From NCBI GenBank assembly GCA_964388035.1, contig CAYLZE010000058.1:1-26072 (forward strand): 26,072 nucleotides of DNA, in the 5' to 3' direction. Position numbers and translations under genes: made by a program. Source of the DNA: an uncultured archaeon. GTDB taxonomy: Archaea; Asgardarchaeota; Lokiarchaeia; Sigyniarchaeales; SOKP01. A model generated the notes under the pieces. That model had not been told where the DNA came from. It ran no database searches and saw only the letters and a list, made by a program, of their open reading frames with translations. Numbering within the stretch: position 1 is the first letter of the stretch; every line of letters begins with the position of its first letter. Below are positions 3,979-16,810 of the stretch, one piece after another.

Positions 3979-4400
3979 CTATTATACACGTGTATTCATT
4001 TAATGATATAATTGTATTTTTTCCCTCATGATTATATTAGAACTATAAGTATTTATTTTTATAGGAATATTCCTTCAAAAACAAAACGATTTAAAAAATT
4101 GTCTTTATAAAGTTTACATTTAAACTAATAAAAAAATAAAATCATTTATCGAAAAACAGAATAAGTAAAAAACCTTATTTTTAATGATTAACAATCATGT
4201 TAAAATTATTTATTTCAAATCTTTGAATAATTTACTCAAAAATAGCAAAAATAGTAAAAGAATTTTCAGAAGATTTTAAAGATCTAAACCTATTTCCAAG
4301 AACTACTATTGGAATATTTATTTATTATAAAGGTCGTTTTCATTCAATGGATTGATTAATTTTCTTCAAAAATAAAAGAAATGAAAAGATAATAAAATTA

Positions 4401-5233
<833 letters not shown>

Positions 5234-5501: not shown

Positions 5502-6410
5502 TCAATGGTTCACTACTACTTCATAACCATGCGATTCAATTCTTTCCATGATCGATTCGAGCATTTTTTCTGTTAAATCGCCCATATCTTTATATGATTC
5601 TCCTTTTCCTATTTTTTCATATTTAGTTTTTGCCATTTTATTATATGGCATTAAATGAACGGGCCCGAGATAATCATTTTCCTTGAGGAATTGAATTACA
5701 TTTTCGATTGATTCTATATCCGTATTAACGCCAGGAATAAGTGGAATTCTAGCAATTACTTTATCTTTTTTCTTGAGAGATACTATTTTTTTAAAATTGT
5801 TAAGGATTTTTTGATTAGATACCTTTGTAAATTGCTCATGAATCGAGGGATCAACGTGTTTGATATCGAAGAGAAACAGATCTACAAGCGGGATTAAGTC
5901 ATCCAATAAATTTTCATTAAAGTAACCACAAGTTTCAATTGCAGTATGAATCTTCTCCTTTTTTAGTGTTTCTAAGAGATTTATTAAGAATTTAAATTGC
6001 ATTGTAGGCTCTCCCCCCGAAATAGTTACTCCGCCTCCAGAATTATCATAAAATGGTTTATCAAGTTTTACAACATCCACTATCTCTTCAACCGTTTTTT
6101 CCTCTCCAATTCGTTCCATCACTCCATTGGGGCATTCTTCGACGCACTTACCGCAGTTTTTACAAAGAGAGAGATCTCGTATAACGCCATTCTCACCCAT
6201 TTGAAGTGCGTGATTAGGGCAAGCTTGCACGCAAATTCCACATTTTTGGCATTTTTCTTGAAAATAAGAGATTTGAGGTTCCATTAATTGGGATTCAGGA
6301 TTATGGCACCAAACACACCGCAAGGGGCATCCTTTCAGAAAGACTAAGCTTCGGATGCCTGGTCCATCATAAATGGCATAATTTTGAATATCAAAAATTA
6401 TTCCTTTCAT
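5502..6410 (-). CDS. Glycyl-radical enzyme activating enzyme (radical SAM, with 2x[4Fe-4S] ferredoxin insert)
   Basis: DGPGIR, GCPLRCVWCHNPESQ (CxxxCxxC), CQKCGICVQACP, CKNCGKCVEECP, GGVTISGGEP and HTAIETCG. Likely start is the ATG at 6410 (MKGIIFDIQ), 7 nt after the GRE stop, rather than 6455. Confidence 0.95.
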   Translation of the reverse strand: MKGIIFDIQNYAIYDGPGIRSLVFLKGCPLRCVWCHNPESQLMEPQISYFQEKCQKCGICVQACPNHALQMGENGVIRDLSLCKNCGKCVEECPNGVMERIGEEKTVEEIVDVVKLDKPFYDNSGGGVTISGGEPTMQFKFLINLLETLKKEKIHTAIETCGYFNENLLDDLIPLVDLFLFDIKHVDPSIHEQFTKVSNQKILNNFKKIVSLKKKDKVIARIPLIPGVNTDIESIENVIQFLKENDYLGPVHLMPYNKMAKTKYEKIGKGESYKDMGDLTEKMLESIMERIESHGYEVVVNH

Positions 6411-6417
6411 TGTAGTG

Positions 6418-9003
6418 TTAGACATTGATATGTTCTGTACGAGAAATGATTTCATCTTGAATTTCTTTTCCTAAATCCACAAAATATGCGCTATAACCTC
6501 CGACTTTCACGATTATATTGCGGTATTTTTCCGGATCTTTTTGAGCTGCTTGGAGCACGTCCGTTGAGACGACTGTAGGTTGTAATTGTTCTCCTCCCAT
6601 TGCAAAATAAGTACGTATCAGTGAGATCCATTTCTTTTTAGCTTCTTCGGTTTTTCCAATACCAGAGGGGTGCATTCTTATGTTTACCGCACAACCCATG
6701 ACGTGTTCATATTCCAATGCGGCAACGGAACGTAAAACTCCTGTAGGACCGTGTTCTTCCACATTATAAGGGTTACAACTTGCGGCAAAAGGACGTCCTG
6801 CCAACCTTCCATCCGGTGTTGCGATTGAAATTCTACCATCATACGTATGAGTGGTCATGCTATTAATGAAAGGAGCAACAAATCCCCCCTTGAACGTCTC
6901 ATACTTATAAGTTTCTTTGAACATGTGCTCGGTGACTTTTTTAGCCAGCTCATCGGATTCGGGATTTCCATTACCCCATTTGCCTTTTAAGTCTTGTATT
7001 AATTTAAAAATATATTCATAACCCCCCGTGAAATTATTATCTACAGCATCCACTAACTCTTTTAAAGTGAACTTTTTCTGTTCGAATACAAGCTTTTTGA
7101 TAACGTATAATGAATCCACGGTATTTGCAATACTAGTCATAAAGAGGATACCCTCGCAATCATAGATTGCTCCTCCTTCGGTCACGTCTTTTTTATTTTC
7201 AAGACAACCATCCATGAATGCAGAAATAAAGGGTGCCGGGAGATTTTCCGCATATAAGCGATCGCGTATGATGGAAGCATCCACGATTTTTTTAATCATA
7301 AAATCCGTTTGTGCGTAAAAACTTTGCAAGAATTCATCAAAAGAGTGGAAACTTTCGGGTTCTCCCGTTTTTAATCCTGAATCTTTTACCATACCTACTA
7401 AGGTTTGAGCATTTCCATCGCGTAGAGCCAGATCTAACGTGCGACATAAAAGAAGGGATGAAAAGCCTTCACCTCCCGTTTTTCCAGGAGCACACATGTC
7501 CACGCATCCCGTAATTGCATAAGTATTTGCATCCTCTTGGGTAAACCCTCGATTTAAAAGGGTTTTAACGCAGAGATCGTCATTCATTAAAGAAACGCTG
7601 GATACGCCATGGTAATGCAAATCTGCTATTTTCATTAATAAGTCTTCGGGCGTATTTTTATTGATTCTAACCGCAAAATTCAGTGATGCTTTCGAACGGT
7701 CGGCAGCTTCCAGCATCAAGTAAGTGAGAGGATTAGTGGCATCTTTCCCCTCCTTGGTAAGACCACTCAATGTTACCGGCTCAGAACCTTCGTATCTCTG
7801 GCTAAACTCCGTTGAAGCGTTTGAATAAGGACGCATATTGTGGCACATGACCTTTAAAAATAATTCTTCAAGTAATTCCCGCGCTTCCTTAGAATTGATT
7901 TTTCCGTCTTCTAAATCTTTTTTGTAATAGGGATAAAAAAGCTGATCCAGGCGTCCAGGTGCATGAACATTAAAGGGAATTGCTAACTCTACTGCGGTTT
8001 TGACCGTCCAATAAGATTGGATCGCTTCCTTAAAGGATTCTGCAGGATAAAGTGGAACTTTCTCGCAAATTTTCAGAATTTCAGTTAAAATTGCTAAGTG
8101 TTGGGAATCAGAAGTAAGTTTCATTTGTTCTTTAATTTTTCGAATGATTTGATTATTATAAAGGATCACTCCATCCAGGACAATATCGATGGACTTTAAG
8201 AAATCAACTTCTCTCTGCGTTAAATTTGCTCCTTCTGCTTCGAGAATCTCTTGTACCTCTTTTTTCACCCCTAGCAAGCCTTTTTTAATAGGCTTTTCAT
8301 GATTCAAGATTAAATGCCCTTGCCAAACACCAAGAGCCGAGCCGATTGATGTAACCATATCATTCTGAGCGGTAGTTCGGGGAAGATTTTCAATGAAATC
8401 TCCAAACTCTCCCGGATAAATCCCTTCTTCCTTAAATTTCTTTCCCAATAAATCTGCGATGGTCTTATCTTTCCAATAAGGTAAAAGTTCATTTTGAAGA
8501 ATTTCCTTATCTTCTTCTTTGATGCGATATGGATTTATTTTTCGTTTATCTAACGTATCCGTTCCTAACTCGGGCATTGCAGCACCAATTTTATTTGCGA
8601 AATCTATTAATTTTATCAAACTATCGGAGCCTTCTTTTGCAATCTTATATTTAGTGAAGTTCTTGGTACCTTCTCTTCCGAATTTTCTCATTGTTTTCTC
8701 ATCCAACTCAATTTCAAACACGCGATTGAATAGTCCTCTTTCGATGTCAATGGGAATGCCTAAAAAATTCTCAGTCCAGGTTCCGACAATTTTATCATCG
8801 GGATCGATATTTACATCCATGTGTTCATACACATTTTTCATTGCCAGGGCGACGCGTATACCCAAAGAGAGATTTTGATTTTCCGCGGCACGCCAACTTT
8901 CCGTATAATACTTTGCTCTTTGTATGGAAATTATTGGAATTTCATCCAATAATCTCCTCCTCAATTTCTTAATTTTTACGCTCGCGTTATCACTTAAATC
9001 CAT
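6418..9003 (-). CDS. Glycyl-radical enzyme (PFL-like superfamily), substrate unknown
   Basis: PGRLDQ, Cys loop TGCVDMC (Cys500), ATPDGR.AG.P and C-terminal Gly loop IVKVGGYSAYF...QDEIISRTEH (Gly836). Adjacent activase; AGGT upstream of ATG. Confidence 0.95.
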   Translation of the reverse strand: MDLSDNASVKIKKLRRRLLDEIPIISIQRAKYYTESWRAAENQNLSLGIRVALAMKNVYEHMDVNIDPDDKIVGTWTENFLGIPIDIERGLFNRVFEIELDEKTMRKFGREGTKNFTKYKIAKEGSDSLIKLIDFANKIGAAMPELGTDTLDKRKINPYRIKEEDKEILQNELLPYWKDKTIADLLGKKFKEEGIYPGEFGDFIENLPRTTAQNDMVTSIGSALGVWQGHLILNHEKPIKKGLLGVKKEVQEILEAEGANLTQREVDFLKSIDIVLDGVILYNNQIIRKIKEQMKLTSDSQHLAILTEILKICEKVPLYPAESFKEAIQSYWTVKTAVELAIPFNVHAPGRLDQLFYPYYKKDLEDGKINSKEARELLEELFLKVMCHNMRPYSNASTEFSQRYEGSEPVTLSGLTKEGKDATNPLTYLMLEAADRSKASLNFAVRINKNTPEDLLMKIADLHYHGVSSVSLMNDDLCVKTLLNRGFTQEDANTYAITGCVDMCAPGKTGGEGFSSLLLCRTLDLALRDGNAQTLVGMVKDSGLKTGEPESFHSFDEFLQSFYAQTDFMIKKIVDASIIRDRLYAENLPAPFISAFMDGCLENKKDVTEGGAIYDCEGILFMTSIANTVDSLYVIKKLVFEQKKFTLKELVDAVDNNFTGGYEYIFKLIQDLKGKWGNGNPESDELAKKVTEHMFKETYKYETFKGGFVAPFINSMTTHTYDGRISIATPDGRLAGRPFAASCNPYNVEEHGPTGVLRSVAALEYEHVMGCAVNIRMHPSGIGKTEEAKKKWISLIRTYFAMGGEQLQPTVVSTDVLQAAQKDPEKYRNIIVKVGGYSAYFVDLGKEIQDEIISRTEHINV

Positions 9004-9198
9004 AAATCATACCTGTTATATGCTTATTTTGCATTTTAATTTTAAGTGGGTTATAATAAACAAATCAGTAATTTTGAGAAACTATTAATAAGAAAAATAC
9101 TTGCCTTTTATTAAATATAATATATATTCTAAGAATACCTAAATATTTAGTTGCGGGTAAAGAAATCGATCCTTAATTTCTAATAAGAATCCAACTAC

Positions 9199-11787
9199 TC
9201 ATGGGAGAGGCAATGAAAAATAAAATGTCGAACCTTTATTTCTTCCTTCGGATTCCATCCAGATATTCCCCCCATGAAGTTTAATAATCTTTTTAGAAAT
9301 ATATAATCCTAACCCAGAACCATCACTCTTAAGATCTAATCCTTGCCCGTATCGTTCAATTTTTCCAAATTTTTTGAATATTCGCATTTTCTCTTCTTCC
9401 GTGAATCCAATTCCATTATCTTTAATAGAAATGATAATTTTGTCATTTGTCAACTGAGATCCGATCTCAAGCATGCTGTGGGGTGGGCTAAATTTTATGG
9501 CATTAGTCAATATATTAGTGAGTACATCGAAAATTTGTTCTTTTTCAAAACTCGTAATTAATTTCTCTGGAAGATCCAATTTGATTGACATATCTCGCAA
9601 TTTTAATAACCCATTTAATTCGTTCAAGCAATATTTGATTAGAAAACTTAAATTTTCAGGAGATTTCTTGATAGAAACGTTTTCAGATTGCAATTCTGAC
9701 GCTTTCAAGATAATATGTATGAGATTTTCCAGTCTCCCACAACCCTGTTTGATCTCATTAATATTATTAAACATTTCAGTGGTGAAGACGCCCCCATACA
9801 ATTCCACCATCAAGTCTGTAAATCCTTTTATGGAAATCAATGGAGTTTTCAATTCATGAGAAGCTCTTCGAAGGAAGTCGGATTTAATTTTGTTTAGATT
9901 GATTAATTCTTGTTTCGCGTTCTTTTTTTCCGTTACATCCTGTAAAATAGTTTGTATGTATTTAATGTTCCCTAGATTTATTAAAGTAACCTGAACTGAT
10001 GCCCAAAAGATAGTATCATCTTTTCTTTTTAACTTCATTTCTTGTTCTAAGGGAACGAGATCTTTTTCAATTAACTCATCTATTTTCTCAAGTTTATCTC
10101 TCTGATCATCTGGAAGGAAATTGAAATCGCTTACGTTTCTCTGAAGAAGCTCTTTTTTAGTATATCCCATTAATTTACTCGTGAGTTCATTGCAATCTAA
10201 AATAATTCCTTCATTAGAAAATAAAATTATTGCTACGGGTGCATTATTGAATAATTCATGATATTTTTCCTCACTTTGTTTTAATAATTTTTCCGTTTCT
10301 TTCCGAGAAGTGATTTCTTTAACAAATATGGCAACTTGATCTTCCGAAAAAAAGAGATTCCGGACTTCGTAATATCTTTCACATCCTTGCATTGTCAATG
10401 AATATTCTATTGTTGTAGGTCTTTTAGTCTCAATAGTGTTTTTAATTGCATGACGGAAGAGATTCGCTACTTTTTCGGGAAGAACATCAATCATTTTTTT
10501 TCCCATGAACTCTTTTGGTGAAACATAAAGATCTTGTTCTCTCCCTCTATAATCCACTATCGTGCTATCTCCGGAAACTTTAAAAAATAGATCAGGAATA
10601 GCTTCAAAAGTATTACGAAATTTGGCTTCTGATTACTTTAGTAGTAGTTCTGCTTGTTTTCTCTCCGTTATATCTGATATGGTGCCTAAATATCCCACAA
10701 TTTCACCAGAATCGTTATGTAAATGAACAATTCTTCCTTCCACCCATGTTATTTTTCCAAGGGAACTTTTAAATCGATAGACAGCGTTAAAATCCGCTTG
10801 TTGTGAAATAGAATCACGCCATTTTTTCAAAATTAATTCTCTATCTTCTGGATGTAACCATTGTAACCAACCCTGACCCACTGCTTCTTCCAATGTAATT
10901 CCAGAAATTTCACTCGCTTTAGGATTAATGTAAAGGCAGTTGCCGTTCTTATCTAATTGAAAAATGCCTATTGGTGCTGATGTGGTTAATATCCTATACT
11001 TTTGTTGCGATTCTTTAATTTTTTCTTCTGCTTTGATTTGTCTCGATATATCCTCGCAAAGGGTAACGATGCATTGTTTTCCACTGAGCTTAATCAAATT
11101 AAAATTCAAGCGTGCGGTATATATTTTACCATCTTCTCTTATTAAATTAACAATATAGTCTCTTACTTCATGAGTAGTATGCAGTATATTAAGAATCTTG
11201 TCCCGATCTGTGGAATTAACATATAATTTTTTCAAATTCGTTTTCTGATACTTTTCTAAGCTAAACCCGCTGATTTCTTCCATTTTTTTATTGATGTTAA
11301 TAACATTTCCATTTAAATCAGAGATGCAAATTCCAACCAGTGAGGAATTCCATAGCGTCTTGTATCTTTCCTCTGATTCCTTTAGTTTTTCTAATGCTAT
11401 ATAACCCTCAGACACATCCTCAATAGTACAAATCATTCCTTTATAAGAATTTTTTTCCAAGATAGGTATAATCCATCCCGAATGATAATCGATCCTTCCT
11501 TCTAAAGAATGAATTGGGATAGGAGCATATTTTATGGGTTTTAATGTCTTTTTCGCTTTAATAAAAAAAGGTCTGAACTTTTTGATCCTATCCTCGGGAA
11601 AATTTTTTAAAATATTACCCCCAATAATCTTTTCGGATTCAATATTTGTTATTTTCGGAATTGCTTCATTATGATAAACAATAATATCTTTTGTATTAAT
11701 GACTAAGACTCCATTATTAATTCTGTTTAAGATATTTTCATAAAAATCGGTAGTATTATCTGAAAAATGAGGGGGTTTTAATTTCAT
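9199..11787 (-). pseudogene. Soluble multi-PAS (about 5) sensor histidine kinase interrupted by one in-frame TAA at 10633-10635
   Basis: ORFs 10633..11787 and 9199..10557 share a frame. The 75 nt between them read SEAKFRNTFEAIPDLFFKVSGDSTI, giving ERKQAELLLK*SEAKFR, a PAS linker where E is expected. H-box ASHELKTPL, N-box NILTNAIKF, DNGIG and GSGLGL are present. No TM segments. Confidence 0.85.
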
Positions 11788-15343: not shown

Positions 15344-16810
15344 TCAGGGAGGATTTAGTCGGAAATTCGAAAACGAGAAATTGAAGATCTGAAATCCCGC
15401 GTTTTTCGCAAGGAAGGGAAGCATGCTTCCAAAATTAAAATAACGCGAGGATTCAAACGCAGAATATTTCATTACCAAATCGGGTCGTCCTAATTTATAA
15501 GCGGTTAAAGCTTTCAATAAATCTAACATGTAGAGGAAACTGCGAAGCTTGATTGCTGCTTCCATCCCCCGCGTGTTCATGCGAAAAGCATTATAATAGG
15601 TGGTATTGGCAGAATTCCCCTGTTCTATCATCAGTCGAAAACTTTAGAGCTTTAGTACAAACTCATCTGCCCATCCTTTTGGAATATACTCCATGTTAAA
15701 GAAGTAATCTTTTTTTAATTCACGGATGGGATGGGTTTTGAGGTTCTTCTTTGCTCGGATGAGGGGGATCAGCCCTTTAAACTGCGTGGATAGTAAATTC
15801 TGTTCACAATAGGGCCCGGTATCTGCAATGGCTATCATCCATTGATAGTCCGTAATCGTTAAAAATTGGTCCAAGGTTTCCCGATACGCCACCGTATCGT
15901 TCCTATTTCCGGGAAACATCTTGAAATATACAGGAAACCAGCGATTAAAGCAAAAAGCATATAAAATGCCGGGATCATATCCCACCCCTTTCTTTTGCCC
16001 GATGTGACGACAATATCCCGCATCCGGATCGTTGTAAGTTTCCTTTCCTTCCTCTTTATTATTTTTACAGTTAGAACGAATGAATTGCCCATCCCAAATG
16101 AGAATTCTCGGGATGATTATCCCGCATTCCACGCATTCTTTCACTAATAGCTGAAAAAAACCAAAAATGGCGTGAGCAGGAATTTTGGAAAGAACGTAAC
16201 TTAAATCTGCAGCGGTGGGAAAGAACGCTGAATCATGAGTGATGCCAAATAAGGGAGGTCGCCCCATGAAGCGCTCCATCTTTTCAATTCCCCTGTAATT
16301 CTTAAAGCCCAGATTAATCCGTAACAATTCATAGGCGATGATATCCGAAAGAAACAGGGATTTAAAAGAAACCCCTTGCCGTTCCAATTCTTCTTGTACA
16401 TCATCGAAATACGAAAAATCATTCAACTCAAAAAGGTTCTCGAAGAATCCCTTAAATCCCTTAAGGTAGCGATGCATGGCCCATTCTTTTTTAGAGATCA
16501 CGCTCTCACAATACTCCGCATAGGGAGGAATCTTGAGGGAGGGAAAGCGATATAAATATTTTCCCTTAAGTATGGGAGCCCAATCCGTAAAATCCGTGAT
16601 CTTTTTCTGGAATTTAGACACATCTTGTTTTGTTTGCCTTCCTTGTTTTCCCCTATTTGCTTGAAGAGGAATCCATCGAAATTTTTTACGGGCAAGCCTA
16701 TAGTCTCTGGGAATATTCATATCGAGCTTTTCAATGCTCCTCTTTCCTATAAAATCAGTTAATTGAGTCTGGTAAATACTGGCTTTTCTCTTATATAAGA
16801 TGATTATCAT
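15344..16810 (-). mobile_element. IS4-superfamily (DDE_Tnp_1-like) transposase with in-frame TAA at 15644-15646; element ends not resolved
   Basis: WDGQFI (D1), DPDAGY, IADTG (D2) and LKL*SFRLMIEQGN (Y-x2-R-x3-E signature with Y replaced by TAA). The two ORFs are in frame, 12 nt apart. The region is visibly more GC-rich than its flanks. Confidence 0.8.

Follow-up and report, generated by a model that had tools for sequence, protein, structure and literature searches.

Glycyl radical enzyme and activase genes of the Lokiarchaeal contig

The window analysed here, a stretch of 26,072 nucleotides (nt) from an uncultured archaeon of the Lokiarchaeia (Asgardarchaeota; contig CAYLZE010000058.1 of assembly GCA_964388035.1), contains the gene of a glycyl radical enzyme (GRE) and, just past its stop codon on the same strand, the gene of a radical S-adenosylmethionine (SAM) enzyme of the GRE-activating type (Table 1). 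An earlier note, made by reading the DNA, had drawn attention to the two catalytic loops of the GRE. A script located both loops exactly where they had been read, GCVDMC at residues 499–504 and KVGGYS at residues 833–838.

The GRE open reading frame (ORF) translates without an internal stop into 861 amino acids (aa) and matches the PFL-like domain (PF02901, 1.8e-141) and the Gly_radical domain (PF01228, 9.8e-22) of Pfam. The protein has the features of the GRE superfamily: a PFL-like barrel, an xVxGY loop whose conserved Gly lies in a C-terminal Gly_radical domain, a Cys loop that carries the catalytic Cys, and a radical SAM enzyme as cognate activase. The activase scores 342.7 bits in the NCBIfam model TIGR02494, well above the cut-off of 174; its C43-x3-C47-x2-C50 motif lies at 6306–6329. 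Both genes are thus intact, as the earlier note had stated, and the locus most likely encodes a full GRE and its dedicated activase, both predicted to be functional. The longest activase ORF starts at 6455 and shares 38 nt with the GRE gene. Translation more likely begins at the ATG at 6410, which lies 7 nt past the GRE stop codon and gives a protein of 302 aa, the typical length of the homologues.

An AlphaFold2 model of the GRE (predicted local distance difference test score, pLDDT, 82.6; predicted template modelling score, pTM, 0.88) has the standard GRE barrel, and its top fold matches are the glycerol and propanediol dehydratases (template modelling score, TM, ~0.8; identity 28–30%). The phmmer alignments are interrupted between GRE residues 78 and 148, corresponding to residues 78 and 98 of glycerol dehydratase (GDH). 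The resulting insertion is mostly helical in the model, with low pLDDT at residues 76–88.

Table 1. Features of the window and of related loci. Positions are those of the window unless a contig (C) or locus (L) is named.
Feature	Position	Strand	Remarks
GRE, 861 aa (P0001)	6418..9003	minus	CVD/KVGGYS family, E512/N714 subtype
Cys loop G499-C500-V501-D502-M503-C504	7492..7509	minus	C500, predicted thiyl radical site; D502 in place of the Glu of Cys-X-Glu (CXE)
Gly loop K833-V-G-G836-Y-S838	6490..6507	minus	G836, predicted glycyl radical site; aligns with RVAGYS of GDH
W227-Q228-G229-H230 motif	8314..8325	minus	H230 aligned to His164 of GDH
R403-Y-E405-G-S-E408-P motif	7777..7797	minus	Family-specific; E408 aligned to substrate-contact Tyr339 of GDH
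Insertion of ~50 residues within residues 79–147, relative to solved eliminases	8563..8769	minus	From phmmer alignment and model
AT-rich intergenic region 5' of the GRE gene	9004..9198	minus	Presumed promoter, from reading of the sequence
GRE-activating radical SAM enzyme with two-cluster ferredoxin insert	5502..6455	minus	Probable true start ATG 6410, 302 aa
GPH-family (MFS_2) sugar:cation symporter, 468 aa	18549..19955	minus	Transporter type found beside the GRE in 34/70 family loci
DDE transposase	15644-16810	minus	Between GRE and GPH symporter genes
Second CVD/KVGGYS member in the same genome	C127:4297-6888	minus	62% identical; I512/I714; loop TGCVDMS...GGI
Sugar-catabolic partner module in the same genome	C17:6733-18933		Unlinked to either GRE copy
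Tandem second paralogues	L001/L032 12562-15180; L002 7297-9876; L006 12702-15278		Own subclade inside the family

The catalytic loops are conserved as a family signature

At least 120 full-length homologue clusters, at 59–83% identity, were recovered from 5.8 billion proteins. C500, V501 and D502 of the Cys loop, and all residues of the Gly loop from K833 to S838, are invariant in 120 of 120 clusters. The same holds for Q228, G229 and H230, and for R403, E405 and E408; of the peptide patterns used for the genome scan, the motif containing the latter three was the most conserved. Because CVD and KVGGYS are invariant in clusters from Promethearchaeota, Hermodarchaeota and at least six bacterial phyla, the comparison of homologues identifies them as the signature of a family, hereafter the CVD family, and not as strain drift; the scenario in which close homologues carry CVE and RV is ruled out.

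In contrast to these residues, C504, which the earlier note had counted among the distinguishing features as an extra Cys at +4, does not hold as a family feature: residue 504 is Cys in 103 of the 120 homologues, Val in 9, Ser in 7 and Ala in 1. It is therefore variable and cannot be a second catalytic Cys of the pyruvate formate-lyase (PFL) kind.

The residue at C+2 and the Gly loop were also surveyed across GREs as a whole, in the 150 nearest representatives of clusters formed at 50% identity. Glu occupies C+2 in 117 of these and Asp in only 4, whereas Lys occupies the Arg position of the Gly loop in 19 of 145 neighbouring clusters (13%). In 12 of the representatives, another Gly precedes the radical Gly. 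From these frequencies, the Asp appears as the truly unusual feature, and the Gly-loop Lys as a recurrent one. The Lys, which the earlier note had listed as matching no known class, is thus invariant in the family but fairly common in uncharacterised GREs, and is shared with sister clades that keep CVE.

In a tree of 135 sequences (FastTree, midpoint rooting), the CVD sequences form one clade with a support of 99–100. Their nearest relatives are P0124 (GCVE), L068 (GCTD), P0125 (VCANF) and P0138 (GCVE), all of which carry KVGG[YF]S. The Gly-loop Lys is thus older than the Asp, because sister clades that keep CVE share KVGG[YF]S. The sister clusters, which comprise P0124 and P0126–P0128 (GCVE with KVGGYS), L068 (GCTD) and P0125 (VCANF with KVGGFS), are metagenomic and uncharacterised. 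They resemble the family in length, in the N-terminal region and in the KVGG[YF]S loop, with 44–56% identity, whereas most of them have Glu or no carboxylate at C+2, and they fall outside the CVD clade.

Within the family, two subtypes are distinguished by seven positions, E512/N714, to which the window GRE belongs, and I512/I714. The pairing of the two residues switches only twice on the tree, and no claim of co-evolution is drawn from it. Three loci (L026, L028 and L063), in which tblastn matches spanned 3.3–3.7 kb, were considered as candidates for an intein, but each holds an ordinary ORF of ~860 aa.

The CVD family lies outside the characterised clades

The separation from characterised GREs was judged from hidden Markov model (HMM) cut-offs, scores against structures in the PDB and the bit-score gap; the tree was built without characterised enzymes. 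Every NCBIfam equivalog scores the window GRE at less than half its cut-off. For the HpsG-type C–S lyases, the score was 457 against 1000 (NF048011), placing the GRE outside the IslA/IseG/HpsG group; of the Arg-Gln-Arg sulfonate anchor of HpsG, the first Arg (R183) aligns with L224 and the Gln (Q187) with Q228 in the phmmer alignment. The corresponding values were 441 against 1100 for hydroxyproline dehydratase HypD (NF043068), 404 against 1050 for choline trimethylamine-lyase CutC (TIGR04394), and 285 against 1150 (NF033715) and 297 against 1100 (NF033718) for the arylacetate decarboxylases HpdB and IAD. For PFL itself the score was 102 against 994 (TIGR01255); a Gly precedes C500, and the second Cys, at +4, varies across the family. 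In TIGR01774, which models the PFL2/glycerol dehydratase subfamily, the GRE reached 489.8 bits, short of the cut-off of 678.2.

Among the solved structures, GDH is the best match by sequence (380 bits, ~30% identical), whereas the X-succinate synthases BssA (203 bits) and MasD (182 bits) rank near the bottom of the non-PFL matches. Membership of the BssA/AssA/MasD group is not indicated either, the similarity being weak and no conserved small ORF having been found near the GRE in 68 loci. The same search yielded no small subunit of the kind that accompanies the arylacetate decarboxylases. In an exhaustive HMMER search over 1.84 billion cluster representatives, family members scored at least 1190 bits and two full-length sister clusters 866 and 833, and the next GREs scored 455 at most. 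These comparisons support the view that the CVD family lies outside every characterised GRE clade.

All characterised GRE eliminases and isomerases keep the CXE motif, according to a 2026 review (PMC13450708). The C-V-D of the family, with an Asp invariant in 120 homologues, departs from this motif but keeps the carboxylate, and the mechanism may match that of the CXE class despite the Asp.

None of the archaeal PFL-like GREs has an assigned function (PMC13450708). The only structurally characterised one is PFL2/PflD of Archaeoglobus fulgidus (PDB 2F3O), whose function is debated (PMC13450708). It resembles the CVD family as an archaeal PFL2-type GRE of similar fold (TM 0.82/0.91), whereas it is only 28% identical (317 bits) and was not recovered among the family or the sister clusters. 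A literature search returned nothing on the CVD family and no characterised member of it.

The eliminase carboxylate and His are kept, whereas the other aligned substrate contacts are replaced

The nearest known enzymes are GDH of Clostridium butyricum (PDB 1R8W/1R9D) and propanediol dehydratase of Roseburia inulinivorans (PDB 5I2A/5I2G). They share with the CVD family the GRE fold, a single catalytic Cys, a carboxylate at C+2, the His, the C-terminal glycyl radical domain and an activase with a ferredoxin insert. Conversely, the family has Asp for Glu, KVGG for RVAG, four replaced contact positions and the N-terminal insertion of ~50 residues, with an identity of about 28–33%, and in place of dha or pdu genes its neighbourhood holds genes for a sugar transporter, a kinase and an aldolase.

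The active site was mapped by phmmer alignment of the sequence to GDH, without coordinates. In GDH, the Glu takes a proton from the substrate hydroxyl group and His164 protonates the leaving hydroxyl group (PMC13450708). The Glu435 of GDH corresponds to D502, a carboxylate one carbon shorter, and His164 corresponds to H230. Of the five substrate contacts His164, Ser282, Tyr339, Asp447 and Tyr640, the His alone is kept; the others are replaced by V346, E408, F514 and N714 (Ile in the other subtype), respectively. The mapped residues are invariant in the family or fixed by subtype. Neither the substrate residues of GDH nor those of the sulfonate lyases are conserved.

With a carboxylate at C+2 and the dehydratase His (H230) both in place, the alignment argues for the 1,2-elimination known from other GREs, acting on another substrate that would be more polar and probably larger. 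The earlier note had proposed a different substrate or chemistry; the first part is favoured, whereas the kept residues speak against new chemistry.

Sugar transport and catabolism genes accompany the GRE across loci

For the genomic context, ORFs were called in 70 family loci and clustered, and the cluster representatives were annotated. The neighbours of the GRE are the activase (55 of 70 loci), a GPH-family (MFS_2) symporter (34), an FGGY kinase (23), a 2-keto-3-deoxy-6-phosphogluconate/2-keto-4-hydroxyglutarate (KDPG/KHG) aldolase, Eda (16), a TetR regulator (12), an iron-containing alcohol dehydrogenase (Fe-ADH; 10), a DUF2804 protein (10) and DeoC (6).

In bacteria, the arrangement is TetR-GPH-GRE(-GRE)-activase-FeADH-FGGY-DeoC, the GRE often being present as two tandem paralogues. 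The second paralogue has an [AG]-S-C-V-D-[LC]-C loop and KVGGYS and shares the activase with the first copy. With 202 bits, the DeoC of the bacterial operon exceeds the cut-off of 117 of the equivalog for deoxyribose-phosphate aldolase. The closest model for the kinase is that of xylulokinase, with 324 bits and a cut-off of 380.

In archaea, the loci of the E512 subtype carry genes for a shikimate-dehydrogenase-like protein, a cupin phosphoglucose isomerase (PGI), a 2-hydroxyacid dehydrogenase, a UlaG-like lactonase, Eda and an FGGY kinase, followed by the GRE and its activase. The I512 loci carry PIG-L, an FAD oxidoreductase, GPH, Eda, the activase and the GRE, followed by DUF2804, M29, an aminotransferase and a second type of FGGY kinase. 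An aldehyde:ferredoxin oxidoreductase gene lies directly upstream of the GRE in one archaeal locus (L008).

The FGGY kinase beside the archaeal E512 GREs is ~50% identical to the kinase of the bacterial operon, whereas other FGGY paralogues reach 31% at most, and the kinase beside the GRE forms one orthogroup across the two domains. The Fe-ADH is likewise ~50% identical between archaea and bacteria. The co-inheritance of the kinase and the Fe-ADH with the GRE across domains is the strongest functional clue.

A systematic search of 68 loci found no conserved ORF of 35–110 aa within 2 kb of the GRE or the activase. An ORF of 47 aa, which follows the activase or the transporter in one Lokiarchaeal and one Dehalococcoidia locus, was considered as a small subunit and rejected, the two peptides being unrelated. 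The earlier note had seen no small-subunit or microcompartment genes beside the GRE, and this is supported, no conserved gene of either kind being adjacent.

Proposed reaction and pathway

The CVD family is a widespread clade of uncharacterised GREs whose catalytic motif is a variant one, and it most likely applies known eliminase chemistry to a new carbohydrate-type substrate. We consider it probable, at roughly 60%, that the enzyme is a radical dehydratase or 1,2-eliminase for an imported, unphosphorylated sugar-derived polyol or a similar carbohydrate derivative. The activase would put a radical on G836, from which it would move to C500, and the thiyl radical of C500 would then attack a substrate carbon that bears a hydroxyl group and remove its hydrogen. 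The proton of that hydroxyl group would go to D502, which replaces the usual Glu, and H230 would protonate the adjacent leaving group. The substrate would thereby lose water, or a different beta leaving group, and the product radical would regain the hydrogen from C500. In the cell, the GPH-family symporter would import the substrate, and the co-inherited XylB-like kinase, the Fe-ADH and an aldolase would process the resulting deoxy-sugar or aldehyde.

Several observations weigh against this proposal. The pocket assignments come from the sequence alignment to GDH described above. The window GRE is unlinked to the module of kinase, aldolase and dehydrogenase genes, which lies on another contig. 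About one third of the loci have no informative neighbours, and many of the archaeal loci are such close relatives that they do not count as separate instances of synteny. Bacteria have DeoC as the aldolase and archaea Eda, and the shared genes may therefore serve a parallel branch and not consume the product of the GRE. In addition, corrinoid-dependent methyltransferase genes (a URO-D family protein and a B12-binding protein) lie at 15232-18189 of L002, from Dehalococcoidia, and at 1448-3293 of L086, beside the sister-clade cluster P0124, which may hint at a methoxylated substrate instead.

The GRE might be an ordinary dehydratase of a small diol (glycerol, 1,2-propanediol or ethylene glycol) with a conservative change of Glu to Asp, the Fe-ADH reducing the aldehyde as DhaT or FucO does. 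The nearest solved structures are those of glycerol and propanediol dehydratases, H230 is conserved, the Fe-ADH and FGGY kinase are reminiscent of the gene set of glycerol fermentation, and the Fe-ADH is partly similar to lactaldehyde reductase (176 bits). However, the four replaced contacts (S282 to V346, Y339 to E408, D447 to F514, and Y640 to N714, or to Ile in the other subtype), the shortfall against TIGR01774 (490 bits against 678), the family-specific insertion of ~50 residues and the identity of only ~30% make this decidedly unlikely, as do a kinase that is XylB-like, not GlpK-like, and the presence of a GPH-type sugar transporter where a glycerol facilitator would be expected. A hydrocarbon-adding alkyl- or benzylsuccinate synthase (Ass/Bss), acting on fumarate, is extremely improbable. 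This function has been assigned to Asgard (Hermodarchaeota) GREs with a Gly-Cys loop, on the basis of 29–33% identity and a single Cys (PMC8163825), and members of the CVD family are present in Hermodarchaeota metagenome-assembled genomes (MAGs). The scores of BssA and MasD (203 and 182 bits), compared to 380 bits for GDH, speak against it, together with the kept C+2 carboxylate and dehydratase His, the result of the search for small ORFs in 68 loci, and neighbours that belong to sugar transport and catabolism, not to the beta-oxidation of succinate adducts. The published claims of Asgard alkyl- and benzylsuccinate synthases therefore call for caution: if the genes behind them belong to the CVD family, they would indicate sugar-derived fermentation, not hydrocarbon activation.

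Some chance, although a minor one, attaches to a radical enzyme of another kind, a lyase or isomerase with a carbohydrate derivative as its substrate, either a ring-opening isomerase of anhydro-sugars or glycosides, as YbiW and PflD, or a lyase of an ether, C–N or C–S bond, with a leaving group other than water. YbiW and PflD, the 1,5-anhydrohexitol-6-phosphate isomerases (PDB 8ID7, 8ID0 and 8YJO), act on sugar derivatives upstream of an aldolase, and their paralogue pairs serve C2 epimers (PMC13450708). The CVD family resembles them in its sugar-catabolic clusters and in its tandem paralogues, two of which often share one activase in the bacterial loci. Glycosides are among the cargo of GPH transporters; aminotransferase, PIG-L deacetylase and amine-oxidase-like genes occur in the archaeal I512 loci, and the corrinoid methyltransferases lie nearby in two loci. 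Conversely, YbiW and PflD are about 25–27% identical to the family, keep CXE and act on phosphorylated substrates taken up via the phosphotransferase system (PTS), whereas the CVD loci encode a GPH symporter and a kinase. Identity to YbiW, PflD, HplG, CutC and IslA taken together is only 23–27%, the sulfonate Arg R183 of HpsG aligns with L224, the kept His is typical of dehydratases, and no gene for processing a leaving group is consistent across the loci.

Within the preferred reading of a dehydratase or 1,2-eliminase, a more specific version would have the enzyme dehydrate free pentitols to a 2-deoxypentose, a new type of GRE reaction. By analogy with YbiW and PflD, the tandem paralogues could serve C2 epimers, for example ribitol and D-arabitol, one for each copy. 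The XylB-like kinase would phosphorylate the product, and DeoC would cleave it to acetaldehyde and glyceraldehyde-3-phosphate. This version is rather unlikely as it stands. If true, the five genes of the bacterial operon would make up a whole pathway and would provide a route to deoxyribose-5-phosphate that bypasses ribonucleotide reductase; archaea would route a related deoxy-sugar oxidatively, through sugar dehydrogenase, lactonase, 2-hydroxyacid dehydrogenase, kinase and Eda.

Independently of the substrate, the invariant Asp breaks the C-X-E rule held by every characterised GRE eliminase and isomerase (PMC13450708). A widespread family with a conserved and testable pathway context is a practical target for finding a new anaerobic carbohydrate transformation.

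Distribution, further copies and neighbouring genes of the window

A distribution scan with one genome per GTDB species found 69 loci in 69 species-level genomes, all of them MAGs. The hosts are Promethearchaeota, Hermodarchaeota, Thermodesulfobacteriota, Spirochaetota, Chloroflexota (Dehalococcoidia), Actinomycetota, Bdellovibrionota and unclassified bacteria. The closest relatives of the window GRE are from MAGs of Promethearchaeota (Asgard), in agreement with the Asgard host suggested in the earlier note, but the family also extends well beyond the Asgard archaea. In the FastTree tree, which has midpoint rooting only, a single clade with a support of 100 unites the archaeal sequences and lies among the bacterial ones; this placement is compatible with acquisition of the archaeal copies from bacteria.

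In the window, a frame for a GltD-like pyridine-nucleotide-disulphide oxidoreductase (4300–5233, plus strand) lies directly downstream of the intact activase gene. It lacks the N-terminal part, is interrupted near 4590 by a stop codon in frame, and shifts frame near 4703–4754; it looks like a pseudogene. The neighbours had been described as decayed, and this holds for at least this one gene.

Besides the GPH symporter gene, the window keeps an AMP-ligase gene and a conserved unknown gene (unknown-253), both companions of the GRE in relatives. Genes for PAS histidine kinases (9199–11787), hydrolases and the DDE transposase lie between these three genes and the GRE, which suggests that a conserved neighbourhood was split by insertions.

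The partner module on another contig of the same genome encodes a XylB-like FGGY kinase, an Fe-ADH, a shikimate-dehydrogenase-like protein, a cupin PGI, a fused 2-hydroxyacid dehydrogenase-lactonase, Eda and GPH, and a module of this type adjoins the GRE in related Promethearchaeota. The second family member of the genome has no adjacent activase. The genome as a whole (5.47 Mb, 211 contigs) contains 10–11 GRE genes, located on contigs C2, C11, C39, C54, C55, C58, C63, C91, C127, C156 and C187. Most of them have canonical GC[VL]E loops, several have their own activases, and their number is unusually high for an archaeon.

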